From Candidatus Limnocylindria bacterium (lineage in GTDB: Bacteria; Patescibacteriota; Saccharimonadia; Saccharimonadales; JAGQNK01), in assembly GCA_035489815.1 (NCBI GenBank), contig DATHJH010000013.1:1-59537 (forward strand): a DNA stretch of 59,537 bases. The letters run 5' to 3'. Position 1 is the stretch's first letter. The number at the start of each line of letters is the position of its first letter. The notes under the pieces are model-generated. The model saw only the letters and a program-made list of their open reading frames with translations, searched no databases and was not told the origin of the DNA. The position numbers and the translations under genes are program-made. Positions 10,021 to 16,780 of the stretch are shown here, piece after piece.

Positions 10021-10146
10021 CTGACCCACCCTCACTTTTCTCCCACCCCCTGTCATTCCGGCCTTGAGCCGGAATCCAGGATAATGGGCTATCCTCTGGA
10101 CGGCCGGATCAGGTCCGGCATGACGGAAATAGTGAGTGTGGGTCAG
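10021..10146. mobile_element. REP-doublet MITE-like element, family R3
   Basis: Ends CTGACCCACCCTCAC / GTGAGTGTGGGTCAG; internal REP pair; GGTCAGTTCC repeated on both flanks. Confidence 0.8.
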
Positions 10147-10219
10147 GGTCAGTTCCCAGCACCAGTACATGTGGTGTATACTGAAGTGGTCTGCTATCAG
10201 TAATGGAGGAGTGACCCTC

Positions 10220-10621
10220 GTGAGTACTACTATTGACCAACAGTTTGTCGAATATATCGTAAAATCGCTTGTCAGCAATCCTGACGCAGTTAAAATTGAA
10301 CGCCGCATAGACGAAAAGGGCGTGCTGCTGGAACTCACCGTAGATGGTGAAGACCTGGGCCGGGTTATTGGCAAACGCGGCGCTACTGCCCAAAGCCTCC
10401 GTACGCTGTTGCGTGCGCTGGGTACAAAGAACGATGCCCGCTATAATCTAAAGATTATTGATCCAGAAGGCGGCGTAAGGCCTGTAGCAAGTAGCGCTCA
10501 AGGCTCTGCCGTACAGGATGACAAACAGGAAGATGGTGAAGGTGCCACCAGCAAGAAAGAAAGTGATGTTGTTACTAATACCCGGAAGGAACTAGAAGAC
10601 CTGGATGATCTGGACATATAA
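10220..10621 (+). CDS. khpA: KH-domain RNA-binding protein KhpA
   Basis: VEYIVKSLV.NPD.V, DLGRVIGKRG KH motif; GTG start after GGAGG; follows rpsP. Confidence 0.9.
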   Translation: MSTTIDQQFVEYIVKSLVSNPDAVKIERRIDEKGVLLELTVDGEDLGRVIGKRGATAQSLRTLLRALGTKNDARYNLKIIDPEGGVRPVASSAQGSAVQDDKQEDGEGATSKKESDVVTNTRKELEDLDDLDI

Positions 10622-10733
10622 GAGGGGATGATTTCCCCTCTTATCGCGCGGTGTCCCGAATAAATCGGGACTCCGGCTGTTCTCCCCTCGGAAGCTAAAA
10701 AGAATCTTTTGGAGTAAATCCAAAAGATTCTTT
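10621..10733 (+). repeat. Three-hairpin structured repeat R4, copy 1
   Basis: AGAGGGGA-TGATT-TCCCCTCT; GTCCCGA-ATAAA-TCGGGAC; 15-bp stem with GTAAA loop; homologous layout at 18634-18745. Confidence 0.7.
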
Positions 10734-10766
10734 GATTTAATTTCACATCGACTTCAGGGGACAAGG

Positions 10767-10893
10767 CTGAGCCACCCTCACTTTTTTCACTGCCCCTGTC
10801 ATTCCCAGCTTGACTGGGAATCCAGGTTCTGATCAATAACACTTCTGGATACCGGATCAAGTCCGGTATGACAGGAAGGTGAGAGTGGAGCAG
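10767..10893. mobile_element. Family R3 element with REP doublet (degenerate ends)
   Basis: CTGAGCCACCCTCAC ... GTGAGAGTGGAGCAG with an internal REP pair. Confidence 0.7.
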
Positions 10894-10903
10894 GAGGCAG
10901 GGG

Positions 10904-10932
10904 TTGCAATGGGAGGGGGTTGTCGGTATAGT
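10904..10932 (+). promoter_or_regulatory. Strong sigma70-type promoter with no convincing downstream gene
   Basis: TTGCAA-17 nt-TATAGT. Confidence 0.65.
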
Positions 10933-10939
10933 TGCTTTT

Positions 10940-11055
10940 AGTCTACAAAGACTCGGAATCTTAAAAACAAAAACGATTGGAGCTCATGCGAGCCATCAAT
11001 TTGATGGGAGCTTTATGTGAAGAAAAGACCCGGTAATAATCCGGGTTTTTTCTTT
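10940..11055 (+). ncRNA. Candidate small RNA (about 115 nt)
   Basis: Bounded by the promoter at 10904-10932 and the terminator at 11025-11055; internal hairpins. Confidence 0.45.
11025..11055 (+). terminator. Intrinsic terminator
   Basis: AAGACCCGG-TAATAAT-CCGGGTTTT followed by a T-run. Confidence 0.8.
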
Positions 11056-11056
11056 G

Positions 11057-11244
11057 GAACCTATCCAAAATCTTTTCACCACGGCCGAGAGCAGTTTTCG
11101 GGTGTGAGCCGCTTGTTTTTTGGTTTGAAAGGTACCTAGTAAGTACCTTTCGGAGCACTAGTCTGATTAGAAGGCGAGCGGATTGCATGCGAACTTCTAT
11201 GTGGAGAAGGGTCGGAGTCAGAGGAAGAGATCCTGGATGGGTTC
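11057..11244. mobile_element. GAACC-MITE copy A (subtype 1)
   Basis: Ends GAACCTATCCAAAATCTT / AAGAGATCCTGGATGGGTTC; central AAAGGTAC..GTACCTTT hairpin; homologous to copies B, D, F. Confidence 0.9.
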
Positions 11245-11321
11245 TCAGATGCGTAAGCTCCATACCCACAACCGGAAAACCATTTGCCATACTCTGGAAT
11301 GTGTTGGCGCTAGCAGGAGGA

Positions 11322-11960
11322 TTATATTGTGGTTGTATTGGCAACCTGAGATTGTATACTTTCAACGAATGTTGCCAGAAGACTCGCATTGTCCTCCAGA
11401 GAAGAGTAGGCCCGTAGTGCCATAAATCCACGGGTGCCCTCTACCTGCCACTGGCCCATGGGCGGGGCCGCGTGCCATTCATCATAATTGAATAAAAGTA
11501 CCGAATCATTCAGTGTCTGTGTCACGGTTCTGGCGATTATTGGATTTAGTGCGGGGATGGTAGTTGCCGGCTCTGCCTCCATAGTAGGATCGCTGCTGTG
11601 TAAGGTGCCGCACGGTTTATCCGGAGTGGCAACGGCCCGGGCAAAGGCTATCTCTGCCTGAGGGCCGTCGCTACGGTGTATGGCAATGGTATCAACATCC
11701 GTATGATAGACATCAGGCTCCATAGTGAAGGACTTCGTCTGATATTCTACTGCAACGGGTACAGCGGCCAGAGTAGGAGTGGTATTGAGGCGGACAAGGT
11801 CTATGACATGTGCCGAAAATTGTTTGACTTGCTGCGGCAGATCGTCAGGCAAAATGAGGCGGCCGTCTGAACCGCGTGTCAGTTTTTGCATAGTATCGCA
11901 GCTGCTGCTAGGAAAACTGCAACCTCGATCAAGGTCTGGTGTCGGAATAATGAGAGCCAT
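11322..11960 (-). CDS. Hypothetical protein (possibly cupin-like)
   Basis: 212-aa ORF; LFNYDEWHAAP segment only loosely recalls ureidoglycolate-lyase cupins. Confidence 0.5.
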   Translation of the reverse strand: MALIIPTPDLDRGCSFPSSSCDTMQKLTRGSDGRLILPDDLPQQVKQFSAHVIDLVRLNTTPTLAAVPVAVEYQTKSFTMEPDVYHTDVDTIAIHRSDGPQAEIAFARAVATPDKPCGTLHSSDPTMEAEPATTIPALNPIIARTVTQTLNDSVLLFNYDEWHAAPPMGQWQVEGTRGFMALRAYSSLEDNASLLATFVESIQSQVANTTTI

Positions 11961-12078
11961 AACCCAAGCTAGTATACTACCCGTGATTCCGGGATCATTT
12001 TATTTTGGCAGAAGGTACGCAGGTACTGGTAATCTCTGTGGATAAATGTCTGGCTGGAGAGCTGCTGGCCAGGTGTTG

Positions 12079-12528
12079 CTACTCGGCGGATGCCATGCTG
12101 AGCGATGCAATATGAGCGCCGTTGGTGAAGAGAATATATGACTCTAGCACTTCACACGGTTGGGGTCCGTCAACAACGACGGTCAGGGGTACGGTTACGT
12201 TCTCGTATCCAGGGCTCGATGCTTCCCCAGCCTGTCCAATAATGGGGTCCCGATCTGTCTCAGCACACCTGACGGCAACAAAGGTCTTGTCAGCACCATC
12301 ACCGTCTAGCAGTGCTCCTATGCCAGAGGAGGGATTGTGATAGCTTGCCCTGACTTGCCCTTCCAGGCAGGTCACCGGGAATGTCAGCGCCGCGTCCGAT
12401 TCGGCCGAAGCATCCGGCGTAGAGTCATGCCGGACTATGCCAAACCCCACAGCCACAATGCACCCCAGGCTAACCATCAGCAGTCTTCGGGGAAGGGCTT
12501 CCGGGTTGGTTTGGAGGAAATTGCCCAC
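12079..12528 (-). CDS. Hypothetical membrane-anchored protein (start uncertain)
   Basis: ORF 12079..12585; GTG at 12528 chosen; hydrophobic helix LLMVSLGCIVAVGFGIV. Confidence 0.55.
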   Translation of the reverse strand: MGNFLQTNPEALPRRLLMVSLGCIVAVGFGIVRHDSTPDASAESDAALTFPVTCLEGQVRASYHNPSSGIGALLDGDGADKTFVAVRCAETDRDPIIGQAGEASSPGYENVTVPLTVVVDGPQPCEVLESYILFTNGAHIASLSMASAE

Positions 12529-12573
12529 GGGTGTCCCTTTGCAATTAGTATTTTGTACTATATCATGATAGAT

Positions 12574-13227
12574 ATGAAAGTTCAAATAATTAGTCTCTTT
12601 CCAGAGATGTTTCCGCCTGTGCTGGAGACTTCCATGTTGTTCAAGGCCAAGGACAAGGGCATTGTAGAGTATTCCTACATCAACCTGCGGGACTTTGGTT
12701 TGGGGCCGCGCAAAACGGTAGATGATACTCCGTACGGCGGTGGCGACGGCATGCTACTCAAGCCCGAGCCGCTATTTGCCGCAGTAGAACATGCTATAGG
12801 GTACGACCCTGTAGCAAAGGTGTATCTGATGACGCCTCGCGGCGAGCGGTTTGTTCAGAAACGGGCACAGGAGATTGCGGACGAGAAAAAGGGGATGATT
12901 ATCATCTGCGCCAGGTATGAAGGCTACGATGAACGGATTACTGCACTTGTAGACAGGCAAATCAGTATCGGCGATTTTGTACTGACAGGCGGCGAACTCC
13001 CGGCCATGATGCTGGTAGATGCGGTTGTGCGGCTCCTTCCGGGCGTGCTCGGGGGCGAAAAGAGCGCAGAGATAGAAAGCTTCAGCCATGGCAATAACCT
13101 GGAGTTCCCTCAGTACACCAGGCCAGAAGATTTTCGAGGCATGAAGGTTCCAGAAGTACTCCTTAGCGGAAATCATGCACAGATAGAAGCTTGGCGTAAG
13201 CAGCAATCCGACGCACAGAAGAAGTAA
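12574..13227 (+). CDS. trmD: tRNA (guanine-N1)-methyltransferase TrmD
   Basis: MKVQIISLFPEMF, VDDTPYGGGDGM, CARYEGYDER, SIGDFVLTGGE, VPEVLLSGNH. Confidence 0.98.
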   Translation: MKVQIISLFPEMFPPVLETSMLFKAKDKGIVEYSYINLRDFGLGPRKTVDDTPYGGGDGMLLKPEPLFAAVEHAIGYDPVAKVYLMTPRGERFVQKRAQEIADEKKGMIIICARYEGYDERITALVDRQISIGDFVLTGGELPAMMLVDAVVRLLPGVLGGEKSAEIESFSHGNNLEFPQYTRPEDFRGMKVPEVLLSGNHAQIEAWRKQQSDAQKK

Positions 13228-13237
13228 GGGAAAAGAG

Positions 13238-13272
13238 CAGCCCGGGCTCGAATTTATTTCGAGCCCGGGCTG
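13238..13272. terminator. Perfect 15-bp hairpin after trmD
   Basis: CAGCCCGGGCTCGAA-TTTAT-TTCGAGCCCGGGCTG. Confidence 0.6.
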
Positions 13273-13317
13273 ATTAGAAAAACCGCAAGGTTTGTCTCAT
13301 CAGGCGAAGCCGCCGAA

Positions 13318-13362
13318 AACCATGCTGAGATCGAGAAGTGGCGCAAGGCACAGAGCGGATAA
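13318..13362 (+). pseudogene. trmD: Second, diverged copy of the trmD 3' end
   Basis: Encodes NHAEIEKWRKAQSG* versus NHAQIEAWRKQQSDAQKK* in the intact gene. Confidence 0.8.
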
Positions 13363-13391
13363 TTGCCCTAGATAAAGTAGAGAGCTATAGT
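13363..13391 (+). promoter_or_regulatory. Promoter for the 13418 orphan gene
   Basis: TTGCCC-17 nt-TATAGT. Confidence 0.5.
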
Positions 13392-13417
13392 TCAGGAAAC
13401 TAATAAGGATACAAAGC

Positions 13418-13849
13418 ATGGCTCATGAACATGAATCACTAATTGCACACATCACTGCCACTCCCCAAACAGAGCTAACGTTTCAAGCCATAACCGTTGG
13501 TGATACAAGCACTATGATCGTTGCTGATCGTACTTGTTTTAGCGTGGGGTTTGTAGTTGCCGGTGAGGATCAATGCAATATGACGTATCGGCTGACGGAC
13601 AGAGAAGGTGAAAAGCCGTGGGACCTGGATGTTCTGAATCAAAGATCTAGTATGATAGCTACACGGGCGACACTTAGAGGAGAAGGGGTGATAGGGCTGG
13701 ATCCTGGGGTCGTGGGCGAAACCCGTGAGACTCTGGGCCCTGACGGGGAGCCCATTGCAGTGGCTGCTCTTTCGCACTCTGAGGTGGTATTGGGCATTGC
13801 GGCGATTGGTCACTTTGAAGTGGTGAATCTGCCCGAGCCTACTCTCTGA
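13418..13849 (+). CDS. Hypothetical protein (orphan)
   Basis: 143-aa ORF with AAGGA RBS and upstream promoter. Confidence 0.55.
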   Translation: MAHEHESLIAHITATPQTELTFQAITVGDTSTMIVADRTCFSVGFVVAGEDQCNMTYRLTDREGEKPWDLDVLNQRSSMIATRATLRGEGVIGLDPGVVGETRETLGPDGEPIAVAALSHSEVVLGIAAIGHFEVVNLPEPTL

Positions 13850-13869
13850 TCACGTCACTACACGACCTG

Positions 13870-14043
13870 TTAGTAGTTAAATCCTCCGCCGTTGCCCCCG
13901 CCGCTATCGCGCATAAAGAAATAGTAGACTAAGCCATAAACTACCACGGCGATTACCAGGTAGATGACTACCCATTGCCAGGTCGGCCGTTTGCCGTATC
14001 CGTGTGATTGTTTTTGGGGTGGCTGTGCATTTAAGTCTGCCAT
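13870..14043 (-). CDS. Small single-pass membrane protein (57 aa); not in the ORF track
   Basis: MADLNAQPPQKQSHGYGKRPTWQWVVIYLVIAVVVYGLVYYFFMRDSGGGNGGGFNY; AAGGAG RBS. Confidence 0.75.
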   Translation of the reverse strand: MADLNAQPPQKQSHGYGKRPTWQWVVIYLVIAVVVYGLVYYFFMRDSGGGNGGGFNY

Positions 14044-14426
14044 AGGTAACTCCTTTCTTTACTCACTATACATAAGCAGTATACTCGCCCTAAGGCTTCC
14101 GGGACAGGAATTGCAGCCTCTATAGTGGCTCTACTGCCGTTACTTGCAAACCTTAGGCGGTGCTGGCTGCACTACAGTATTTAAAGCAAATTGGAGTACA
14201 CGTGGCGGCAGAGAACCCAACTACGATCCTGGGTATAGAGACGGGCGGTGAAGGATACTTCCACTGGATAGACTGGTAAAGGTAGTATTGCCAACGGGGC
14301 TTGGGAAGTTGGAAGTAGGCTTCACGACCGAAAGTCGATAACACCCTGAGCATCAATCTTCTGTTACAAAACAAGGACACGTCCCAGACTTGCTATACTA
14401 GGTAAGTACTCAATAAGGAGGGTGTC

Positions 14427-14810
14427 ATGAGATTATTTGCCATCAAGCCGGTTTACGCCCACTGCGATTTGCCTTGCGGCGTGTATGACCCGGCGCAGGC
14501 TCGCATAGAGGCAGAGTCTGTTCACAAGATTTTAGAAAAATATCCGGACTTGGACCATGAAGAGGATCGCTGGCGGGCGGTGTTCATCAAGGAACAGCGT
14601 CTGGAACTGGTCAAGCACCACCTGTGGGTGCTGTGGACAGATTATTTTAAACCCGAGCATTTAGAGAAATACCCTAACCTGCATGATCTATTCTGGCAAG
14701 CAACTAAACAAGCTGGCGCGGTCAAAAAATCTGTGGACAAAGCCGACAGCCAGAAATTGCTGGACATGATTGATGAAATCGCCAAGCTCTTCAAAGCAAC
14801 TAAATCCTAA
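14427..14810 (+). CDS. sodN: Nickel superoxide dismutase precursor
   Basis: Nickel hook HCDLPCGVYDPA after an 11-aa leader; AAGGAGG RBS. Confidence 0.97.
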   Translation: MRLFAIKPVYAHCDLPCGVYDPAQARIEAESVHKILEKYPDLDHEEDRWRAVFIKEQRLELVKHHLWVLWTDYFKPEHLEKYPNLHDLFWQATKQAGAVKKSVDKADSQKLLDMIDEIAKLFKATKS

Positions 14811-15123
14811 ATTTCCACTGGTACTTCGCCAAATATACGGACACAGCATGATGCCGGTCCTGCCGCCCGGTACGGTGGTGTATGGTTGGCGCTGGTTCCG
14901 ACGGCTAAAACCCGGCGACATCGTAATCTTCTTTCATAACGACAAAGAAAAGATCAAACGTATAGAAAAGATTACTGACGGGAAAGTCTATGTAGTCGGT
15001 GACCACCAGGACGTCAGCACCGACAGCCGCCACTTTGGCTGGCTGGACAAGGAAGCAGTAGTAGCCAAACTCATCTGGCCCCGAGCCCCCAAAAACAGGG
15101 CCGAAGGGTTTGACTCTCCCTAA
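14773..15123 (+). CDS. sodX: NiSOD maturation peptidase (S26-like)
   Basis: GHSM.PVL..G, KEKIKRI, VVGDH..VSTDSRHFGW; overlaps the sodN end. Confidence 0.9.
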   Translation: MKSPSSSKQLNPKFPLVLRQIYGHSMMPVLPPGTVVYGWRWFRRLKPGDIVIFFHNDKEKIKRIEKITDGKVYVVGDHQDVSTDSRHFGWLDKEAVVAKLIWPRAPKNRAEGFDSP

Positions 15124-15565: not shown

Positions 15566-16780
15566 TCAAACCTCGCCGGATTCGTACATGACCTTGGCCA
15601 GCTTGGCGTCGCAGGTGGGGCAGTTGTCTTCCTCGTCGTCCTCTGCCAGCCACCGTTTGACTGCCATTTGCCAGGGTTCGTAGTCGCGGTAGGCTATGAA
15701 GTCGGCGGCTCGCCGCAGCCACCAGCCCAACCGCCCATAGATGCGGAACCTGCCCCACAATACGGCTGCCCAGCGCGGTCCGGCAGGCATGACATAAATG
15801 GGCTTTTTGGCTTTGTAGGGGCTAGGATCCTGTTTGTTCGAGATGCGCTTGAGATTATGGGTCACGAACTTGGCGTCAGTGATGGCTACCTGGGCCATGC
15901 CGCTGTAAGGCGTGTCGGCATTGTCGCCAATGACGTAGACGCCTGGTTCTGCCTGCAGGAACTGATCCACCCGGACCTTGTGGTTGGTGGCCAGTTGAAA
16001 CCCTTGGGCTGTAAAAAAAGGATTGTTTGTGACGCCGGCAGTCCAGATGACGGTGTGGCTGCGGATGGGTTTGCTGTCTACCATCAGGGCGTCGGCAGTT
16101 TGGGCTTGCACGGCTTTGTTGACCATGACTTTGACGCCGGATTTCCTGAGCTGGCGTTTGACGCGGAAGGATATATCTTTGGGCATGCGGGGCAGCACTC
16201 TAGGTGCGGCCTCTACCAGGTCTACATGGATTTTGTGTTTGGGGGCGTTGTGCTGTTTGGCAATTTTTTTGATGTAGGACGGAAGGGCACCCGCCAATTC
16301 CACTCCGGTCGGCCCGCCGCCGACTACAACATAGTTGAGGTCGGTCCGCCCTTCTTCTACCATTTGCTTATGGAGGTGATCTTTCAGGGCCAGGGCGTCG
16401 GCAGGGGATTTAATGCCAAAGGCGAACTCCTCTAAGCCTTTAATGCCAAAGTAGTTAGTAGTGACGCCCAGGGCGCAAATGAGGGCATTATACTGAAAGG
16501 TCTGGCCATCTTCAGCGGTGACGGTTCGACTCTGTCGGTCCAGGCTGGTGGCTTTGCTAATGACTGTGTGGACGTTTTTGCCGACAAAGATGCCGCTCAA
16601 GGGGACGCTGGCAACCTTCATGCTGCCGCCGGTTGCGACGCGGTAGAGGGTACCGTAGATGCGAAAGTCTGCATGTTCGGCAATCAGGGTTATATGAAAG
16701 TCCGGGTCATTGGCCAGTTCCAGTGCGGCCTTCACCCCGCCGAACCCGCCACCGATGATTACTACTTTGCTTTTGCTCAA
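15566..16780 (-). CDS. ndh: Type II NADH dehydrogenase-like flavoprotein
   Basis: VVIIGGGFGG and VVVGGGPTGVELAG dinucleotide motifs, VIWTAGV, YVIGDNA; TTG start after AGGAG. Confidence 0.9.
   Translation of the reverse strand: MSKSKVVIIGGGFGGVKAALELANDPDFHITLIAEHADFRIYGTLYRVATGGSMKVASVPLSGIFVGKNVHTVISKATSLDRQSRTVTAEDGQTFQYNALICALGVTTNYFGIKGLEEFAFGIKSPADALALKDHLHKQMVEEGRTDLNYVVVGGGPTGVELAGALPSYIKKIAKQHNAPKHKIHVDLVEAAPRVLPRMPKDISFRVKRQLRKSGVKVMVNKAVQAQTADALMVDSKPIRSHTVIWTAGVTNNPFFTAQGFQLATNHKVRVDQFLQAEPGVYVIGDNADTPYSGMAQVAITDAKFVTHNLKRISNKQDPSPYKAKKPIYVMPAGPRWAAVLWGRFRIYGRLGWWLRRAADFIAYRDYEPWQMAVKRWLAEDDEEDNCPTCDAKLAKVMYESGEV

Follow-up and report, generated by a model that had tools for sequence, protein, structure and literature searches.

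The single-copy trmD gene of this Saccharibacteria genome is followed, 90 bases downstream, by what reads as a second trmD 3′ end, which raises the question of how one gene came to have two ends and which of them is its own. The gene lies in the 59,537-nucleotide stretch of contig DATHJH010000013.1 that was analysed here (the window; Table 1). The TrmD protein ends in ...NHAQIEAWRKQQSDAQKK before the stop codon (in longer form, ...LLSGNHAQIEAWRKQQSDAQKK), and the second tail reads NHAEIEKWRKAQSG followed by a stop at 13318-13362. A preliminary description of the locus had reported that the second tail (tail 2) matches the first (tail 1) at 10 of 13 residues and that most shared codons differ synonymously. 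Both statements hold: the tails agree at 24 of 39 nucleotides (62%), and 7 of the 10 shared residues are encoded by different codons, including TCC versus AGC for Ser. The perfect 15-bp hairpin that it had placed in the roughly 90 bp between the copies is present as well, within an interval of 90 bases.

Table 1. Features of the trmD locus, flank repeats at other copies of the spacer element (element E) and further gene-tail relics in the same genome.
Feature	Position	Strand	Evidence or remark
trmD, tRNA (m1G37) methyltransferase, intact, 217 aa	12574..13227	+	Pfam PF01746, 190 bits
Tail 1, left flank copy, functioning trmD 3′ end, GNHAQIEAWRKQQSDAQKK + TA of stop codon	13167..13226	+	Contiguous with trmD; aligns with 13314 onwards, shuffle p<0.005
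Element E, one copy	13226..13313	+	nhmmer 65.9 bits, E=2.8e-18
E 5′ box AAGGGAAAAGAGCAGCC	13226-13242	+	Exact match to the family's conserved box
E hairpin 1	13238-13272	+	Perfect 15 bp in window copy
E hairpin 2	13273-13301	+	One mismatch in window copy
E mini-hairpin GGCGAAGCC	13303-13311	+	
Tail 2, right flank copy, untranslated trmD 3′-end relic, (E)NHAEIEKWRKAQSG and stop	13314..13362	+	Top non-self TrmD-profile match; begins right after the element's end
Promoter-like site TTGCCC-17-TATAGT, abuts tail 2 stop codon	13363..13391	+	Consensus scan only
Orphan ORF, 143 aa, within inserted block	13418..13849	+	No Pfam family
57-aa membrane protein gene, native to position, outside insert	13870..14043	-	P0006 synteny
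sodN, nickel superoxide dismutase, conserved right-hand trmD neighbour in relatives	14427..14810	+	Pfam PF09055; synteny trmD-sodN-sodX-ndh
E flank repeat, end of yjbR-like gene	G006:C6		50 bp, 48/50 identical
E flank repeats, last alaS codons	G001; G011		63 bp (G001), 56 bp (G011)
E flank repeat, rpmC/rpsQ junction	Own genome		22 bp
E flank repeats, other copies			15-27 bp
alaS relics: functioning tail, 3.9 kb of orphan ORFs and MITE-like repeats, relic A, E variant, relic B	Contig C36, ~10950-15050; L189 1400-5550	-	Third-position differences 9/11
atpG relic: one orphan ORF, then 43-nt relic	Contig C42, plus-strand coordinate 32122	-	Third-position differences 4/5
DEAD-box helicase 3′-end relic, 38 nt, RAGRIGYALTFVAG and stop, 2.05 kb downstream, behind two inserted ORFs (253, 354 aa)	Contig C21, plus-strand coordinate 4667	-	Third-position differences 6/8

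There are two trivial explanations for tail 2, chance resemblance and an assembly artefact, and the preliminary description had named both as what would overturn it. The match is short, and when a TrmD profile built from 30 relatives was run on all 65,506 six-frame pieces of the 1.4-Mb genome, tail 2 scored 11.2 bits with a genome-wide E-value of 0.56. It was nevertheless the best match after trmD itself, and given its same-strand position at a distance of 90 bp, the expectation scaled to the 1-kb trmD neighbourhood is ~4e-4. It also starts exactly at the boundary of the element that fills the spacer. Over 12900-13450, a separate Logan assembly (SRR7026477) shows 100% identity, and since the longest identical run between the tails is ~5 nt, a k-mer misjoin is unlikely. 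Chance or artefact is thus almost certainly not the explanation.

Tail 2 might instead still be used, either through readthrough of the trmD stop codon or through removal of the element at the RNA level. It is undecayed and continues the reading frame of trmD, and no stop interrupts the 44 codons from the TAA to the tail 2 stop. However, the chance of being both in frame and open is ~4%, too high to be persuasive. TAA serves as an ordinary stop in this group, and Rfam gave no match to a self-cleaving or intron family. The sole visible damage in tail 2, a Glu in place of the invariant Gly before NH, also counts against use. Tail 2 has no start codon or ribosome site for its frame, and the predicted RNA fold of 13220-13425 contains the element hairpins and no pairing that involves tail 2. 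These observations suggest a relic for which nothing points to a present function, and we consider continued use extremely improbable. A hammerhead-like CUGAUGAG on the minus strand was dropped as a candidate, the remaining core being absent. Base composition, at ~50% G+C throughout, is uninformative.

The spacer between the tails is fully accounted for by a repeat that we call element E, a non-coding, two-hairpin element of ~75-88 nt, 88 nt in the window copy. A DNA search found E in 32 of 41 related genomes at 1-18 copies each; the genome studied here has about three full copies and several partial ones. In an alignment of 21 copies, AAGGGAAAAGAGCAGCC and hairpin 1 are followed by CGCGATGAGAAAAACCGYAGGTTTGTCTCAT and, in some copies, by the mini-hairpin GGCGAAGCC. 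The consensus fold of these copies has 22 pairs, 13 of which have changed on both sides, with compensatory changes in both stems. Copies of E often lie directly upstream of tRNA genes or of the ribosome sites of protein genes, and the copy most like that of the window is found in G006 (85% over all 92 nt). Rfam 15 covariance models gave no match at E<=1 over 12400-14500, and the literature searched held no description of E or of a matching Saccharibacteria repeat or RNA motif. The base of the hairpin 1 stem is imperfect in other E copies and perfect in the window copy, which may be a sign of hairpin-templated correction. In G023, E is located directly upstream of the trmD start codon, i.e., at the opposite end of the gene (L049, G023:C55 237-324; end of G023:C3).

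Two other identities for the spacer were rejected. As an intrinsic trmD terminator the hairpin lacks a U-run on the coding strand (a T-run is present on the minus strand only), and because no U-run follows, it is assigned to E and not to a plus-strand terminator; a full E copy inside the rpmC-rpsQ operon junction likewise counts against a terminator role of its trmD sister. Nor does E qualify as a MITE: its ends, AAGGGAAAAG... and ...GTCTCAT, are not inverted repeats, and its flank duplications vary from 15 to 63 bp. Small structured interspersed repeats are known within operons and genes, among them mycobacterial MIRUs, Rickettsia palindromic elements, REP/BIME and Correia elements. Like E, these are tens of bases long, non-coding, hairpin-forming and multi-copy, and are tolerated at gene junctions and gene ends. 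Unlike them, E has no terminal inverted repeats, is conserved order-wide with compensatory stem changes, and is accompanied by long, variable direct duplications instead of a short fixed target duplication.

These duplications were measured by comparing 70-80 nt to the left with 110-125 nt to the right of each E copy against shuffled controls. From 40 matches, one was excluded as too near a contig end, and 14 of the remaining 39 tests gave p<=0.02, 12 of them being true direct flank repeats. Away from the window the duplications span 15-63 bp at 80-100% identity. The right-hand repeat starts just after the ...GGCGAAGCCGC end of E, and the same is true of the window copy. The trmD locus fits the family pattern of left copy, E and right copy, its duplication being present but diverged. 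In contig C14 of the same genome (25351-25438; L043 1851-1939), a full E copy splits the rpmC-rpsQ junction of a ribosomal protein operon, and the stop/ribosome-site/start junction, 22 nt long, is duplicated on both sides of E. Just after the alaS stop, E occurs with a duplicated alaS tail in G001, G002, G011 and G012 (L159, L181, L183, L168), which represent three families; this points to recurrent insertion at one preferred site. Each of these alaS relics matches the tail of its own genome. Therefore, in-place origin is the default of the E family, and the trmD locus would be an exception.

Comparison with three closer relatives (P0004, P0005 and P0006) delimits the inserted DNA. The gap from trmD to sodN is 73 nt in P0004 and 41 nt in P0005, and in P0006 it holds only a small minus-strand membrane gene. 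Since the site is empty in these relatives, the insert runs from 13226 to ~13850 and comprises E, tail 2, the promoter-like site and the orphan gene. The latter two correspond to the orphan gene with its own promoter that had been described earlier, the promoter assignment being based on a consensus scan. The orphan ORF is absent between trmD and sodN in all three relatives, and searches of 400 genomes of the order and of 5.8 billion proteins gave no homologue of its protein. The 57-aa membrane protein gene was dropped as a co-arrival with tail 2 because it is native here: P0006 has a 56-aa gene at the corresponding place and strand, the DNA of which can be aligned with 13870-13930. Homologues of this gene occur in ~60 of the 400 genomes of the order, none of them adjoining trmD.

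A trace of E at the same site was found in one other lineage. Exactly at its trmD stop, G003 retains the initial 13 nt of E, a 13-mer that is unique in the 4.2 Mb scanned; E thus sat at the same nucleotide in another lineage. G003 also carries a convergent gene for a 378-aa GT4-like glycosyltransferase between trmD and sodN (L032 6835-7971), with its stop 23 nt from the trmD stop, beside the 13-nt stump. In the region upstream of sodN, the alignment between the window and G003 is confined to the promoter and the ribosome site. What follows trmD, which the preliminary description had proposed to compare across Saccharibacteria, is thus a different insert in G003 and, in P0004 and P0005, sodN directly. 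The view of trmD as an integration or recombination site stands in so far as an insertion and a recombination point fall at its stop codon; it does not extend to a general hotspot, as none of the ~110 other Saccharibacteria trmD loci examined has a second tail and only G003 has a stump.

Gene 3′ ends are common targets of integrative elements, and some such elements supply a replacement end, as do tRNA/tmRNA-targeting islands and SCCmec at rlmH. The preliminary description had invoked an element that supplies a replacement end. In a classical island, a recombinase would have driven integration at the trmD 3′ end, and the tails would be attL/attR remnants of an island that was mostly deleted later. 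As in these systems, two copies of a gene 3′ end bracket inserted DNA at trmD, and copies in islands may likewise differ in a codon-preserving manner, each having served another host. The trmD locus differs from them in having no recombinase, no identical core, 88 nt between the copies and a functioning end that is apparently native. Specifically, no recombinase or integrase Pfam domain was detected in the eight ORFs scanned at 10136-15120 (khpA to sodX), the tails have no identical att-like core longer than ~5 nt, and E, a non-coding repeat, makes up the whole interval between them. The gene-integrating element is accordingly not supported, and a classical island appears very unlikely.

Comparing both tails with the trmD genes of relatives, as had been proposed, addresses which end is native. 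A tree of the TrmD protein body places the window genome beside P0004. The ending QQSDAQKK before the stop is identical in tail 1 and in this sister lineage, and most of the surrounding clade has long ends of the ...QS[DE]xQKK type. Judged from these sequences, tail 1 is apparently the native, clade-typical trmD end. Tail 2 is of a short, G006-like type that ends in ...KAQSG and a stop, and its best protein match is G006/P0022 (NHAEIEKWRQAQSGSQKE, 13 of 14 residues), in another genus. A G006-like source is weakly assigned, because the lineage signal comprises only 13-15 codons and tail positions 4 and 7 change repeatedly across the tree. At the nucleotide level, the mean identity of tail 2 to 106 working tails equals their median, and its best match (32 of 39 nt) equals their mode. 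An argument from the derived states Q4 and A7, common to tail 1 and G003, was dropped because the tree shows both states recurring many times. A replacement end supplied by an element predicts a foreign working end and a native distal one. We found the reverse, a clade-typical tail 1 and a foreign-looking, displaced tail 2, with a signal that is weak over so short a stretch.

The state of preservation of tail 2 bears on its age. In simulation, the probability that a neutral copy retains 12 or more of 13 residues is p=0.017 at 0.2 substitutions per site and falls to p=1.5e-4 at 0.41, the latter being how far the nearest relatives lie per lineage at third positions. Being undecayed, tail 2 is therefore young, constrained or recently working elsewhere. 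It looks as if tail 2 were not a drifted in-place copy of this genome's tail and came from the trmD of a different lineage. Both the pattern of differences and the tails of relatives agree with the earlier view that the two tails have different lineage histories and do not reflect recent slippage. A tandem duplication by slippage was rejected, the copies being 62% identical with an unrelated 88-nt element between them.

There are at least two ways in which tail 2 could nonetheless have originated within this lineage. In the first, E inserted at the trmD stop in an ancestor and copied the then-current tail; the working copy subsequently changed, and the relic stayed intact by chance or under nucleotide-level constraint, for example as the region upstream of the orphan promoter. 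In-place duplication is the rule at other E copies, and the G003 stump suggests that E has long been at this site. Tail positions 4 and 7 often change, and the differences between the tails (8 at third positions versus 7 at first or second positions) are compatible with one selected and one neutral copy. However, a neutral relic this old should have become scrambled (p<0.02 to 1e-4), and in tail 2 the first 13 codons are perfect but the SDAQKK ending found throughout the clade is absent. Moreover, E is missing from the site in P0004, P0005 and P0006, all of them closer relatives than G003, and the fold shows no evident ground for nucleotide-level constraint. An old in-place duplication is, on this evidence, quite improbable.

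In the second, tail 2 is the lineage's own former end, displaced by a 147-bp unit (a foreign tail 1 plus E) that arrived from a G003-like lineage by homeologous recombination. A single event would suffice, and tail 2 would be native and contiguous with its downstream DNA, consistent with its being undecayed and abutting the promoter of the next gene. G003 combines a QIEAWR-type tail with the E stump at its trmD stop, and elsewhere in the window genome the atpG relic overlaps the next start codon, so that the relic is the native copy there. Against this, the clade signature is in tail 1 and not in tail 2 (QQSDAQKK is shared with P0004, and long tails are clade-wide), and the model requires a native orphan gene, which the three closer relatives lack. 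Nor is there a mosaic boundary within trmD: a sliding-window test against ten relatives and the three closer ones gave no breakpoint. The relatives available are all distant, with 88-92% identity at the protein level for the nearest (search of 5.8 billion proteins) and ~77% nucleotide identity, third positions being 44-50% identical and thus near saturation. We regard this displacement of a native end as unlikely.

The reading that we favour, to which we give slightly less than an even chance, is that recombination brought in E, tail 2 and the orphan gene from another Saccharibacterium that had E at its trmD stop. In that other lineage, E would have been located at the trmD stop with the usual flank duplication. 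From there, E, the right-hand tail copy and the orphan gene would have entered the present genome by recombination at the equivalent position, in the gap that separates trmD from the small membrane gene, with the crossover point possibly in E itself or in the trmD end. We infer both the direction of transfer and the mechanism, as well as the roles of the two tails: tail 2 would record the origin of the inserted DNA, and tail 1 would be the gene's own functioning end. Import is consistent with the existence of the E family and its flank repeats, with the empty sites, with an undecayed tail 2 beside a clade-typical tail 1, with G006-like affinities of both tail 2 and the E copy, with the E stump of G003, and with the tail relics beside inserts elsewhere in this genome. 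Against it, the arrangement of E and then a trmD relic occurs in none of the sampled genomes, homologues of the orphan gene are lacking, and all relatives are distant (~77% nt). Import also presupposes that two or more lineages had E at their trmD stop or, failing that, that an illegitimate join fell precisely on the stop codon, and in-place duplication is the default at the alaS stop.

Two known processes offer analogies for import. Flank transduction by one-ended or read-through mobilisation is known for ISEcp1, IS91/ISCR and LINE-1 (3′ transduction), in which the mobile unit carries DNA from beside its previous insertion; here, by analogy, the cargo would be the old flank copy and the orphan gene, although E, unlike these elements, encodes no enzyme. 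Homology-facilitated illegitimate recombination is known in naturally transformable bacteria, where foreign DNA enters beside a short shared stretch, and E, being conserved across lineages, is a candidate for such an anchor. At trmD, the crossover points are not identifiable.

Relics of gene tails also lie behind other genes of this genome (Table 1). The last 15-27 codons of its alaS are present in three copies, which are more alike than any is to a relative's tail and differ mostly at third positions; in the E variant at this locus, hairpin 2 is fully compensated. The atpG relic forms a mini-ORF, MMPEVAEITGGAEAIK and a stop, which has a ribosome site of its own and whose stop codon shares bases with the following start codon (ATGA). 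It follows the first of three orphan ORFs (162, 113 and 110 aa) in the atpG-atpD gap, and a further small ORF is located between atpD and atpC. At these loci and at the DEAD-box helicase gene, relics were detected by protein similarity, which favours copies with few amino-acid changes and thereby biases the third-position counts in Table 1. With that bias in mind, the counts are a hint that displaced tails often worked in another lineage.

If the import reading holds, trmD carries a 45-base fossil of DNA from a foreign lineage, spliced exactly at the stop of an essential gene with a conserved, folded repeat at the join; if it is wrong, nothing more than a common insertion scar is present. Import at trmD, viewed alongside the alaS, atpG and helicase loci, suggests a general, recombinase-less pickup of orphan genes that leaves operons unbroken, and gene-tail relics could then be used to trace donors. 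One could go further and propose that E is mobile as well as structured, that it travels from one Saccharibacteria genome to another together with its right-hand flanking DNA, and that it thereby seeds orphan genes behind conserved genes, the dead tails at trmD, alaS, atpG and the helicase gene being stamps of the donor lineages. This broader proposal is speculative and probably not correct as it stands. Were it true, it would amount to an undescribed way for reduced CPR genomes to gain genes, the inserts having no recombinase gene next to them, and the genome studied here (1.4 Mb versus the usual 0.7-0.9 Mb) would have been enlarged by E-linked gain. E itself merits study as an RNA or DNA signal, given that it is found order-wide, before tRNA genes and in ribosomal-protein operons, and is absent from Rfam and the literature searched.

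Several further observations concern the surroundings of trmD. Upstream, ~1.95 kb (10621-12573) is inserted between khpA and trmD, which adjoin each other in relatives; this stretch holds two orphan minus-strand ORFs and MITE-type repeats (10790-11250) that occur in dozens of copies genome-wide. Inside trmD, positions 12792-12816 consist of a 25-nt palindromic repeat unit, TGCTATAGGGTACGACCCTGTAGCA, which is in frame and encodes AIGYDPVA. At least 10 near-identical copies of this unit occur elsewhere in the genome, and the sister protein P0004 reads AIGSDPIA at the corresponding position. Downstream, the ndh-like gene beside sodX (15566-16780; compared with loci L032-L034) is 77-78% identical at the amino-acid level to its counterparts in G006 and G004 and 70% identical to that in G003. 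For trmD, sodN and a 575-aa gene the order of relationship is reversed, these being nearer to G003 than to G006 or G004; thus, adjacent genes give conflicting relationships.
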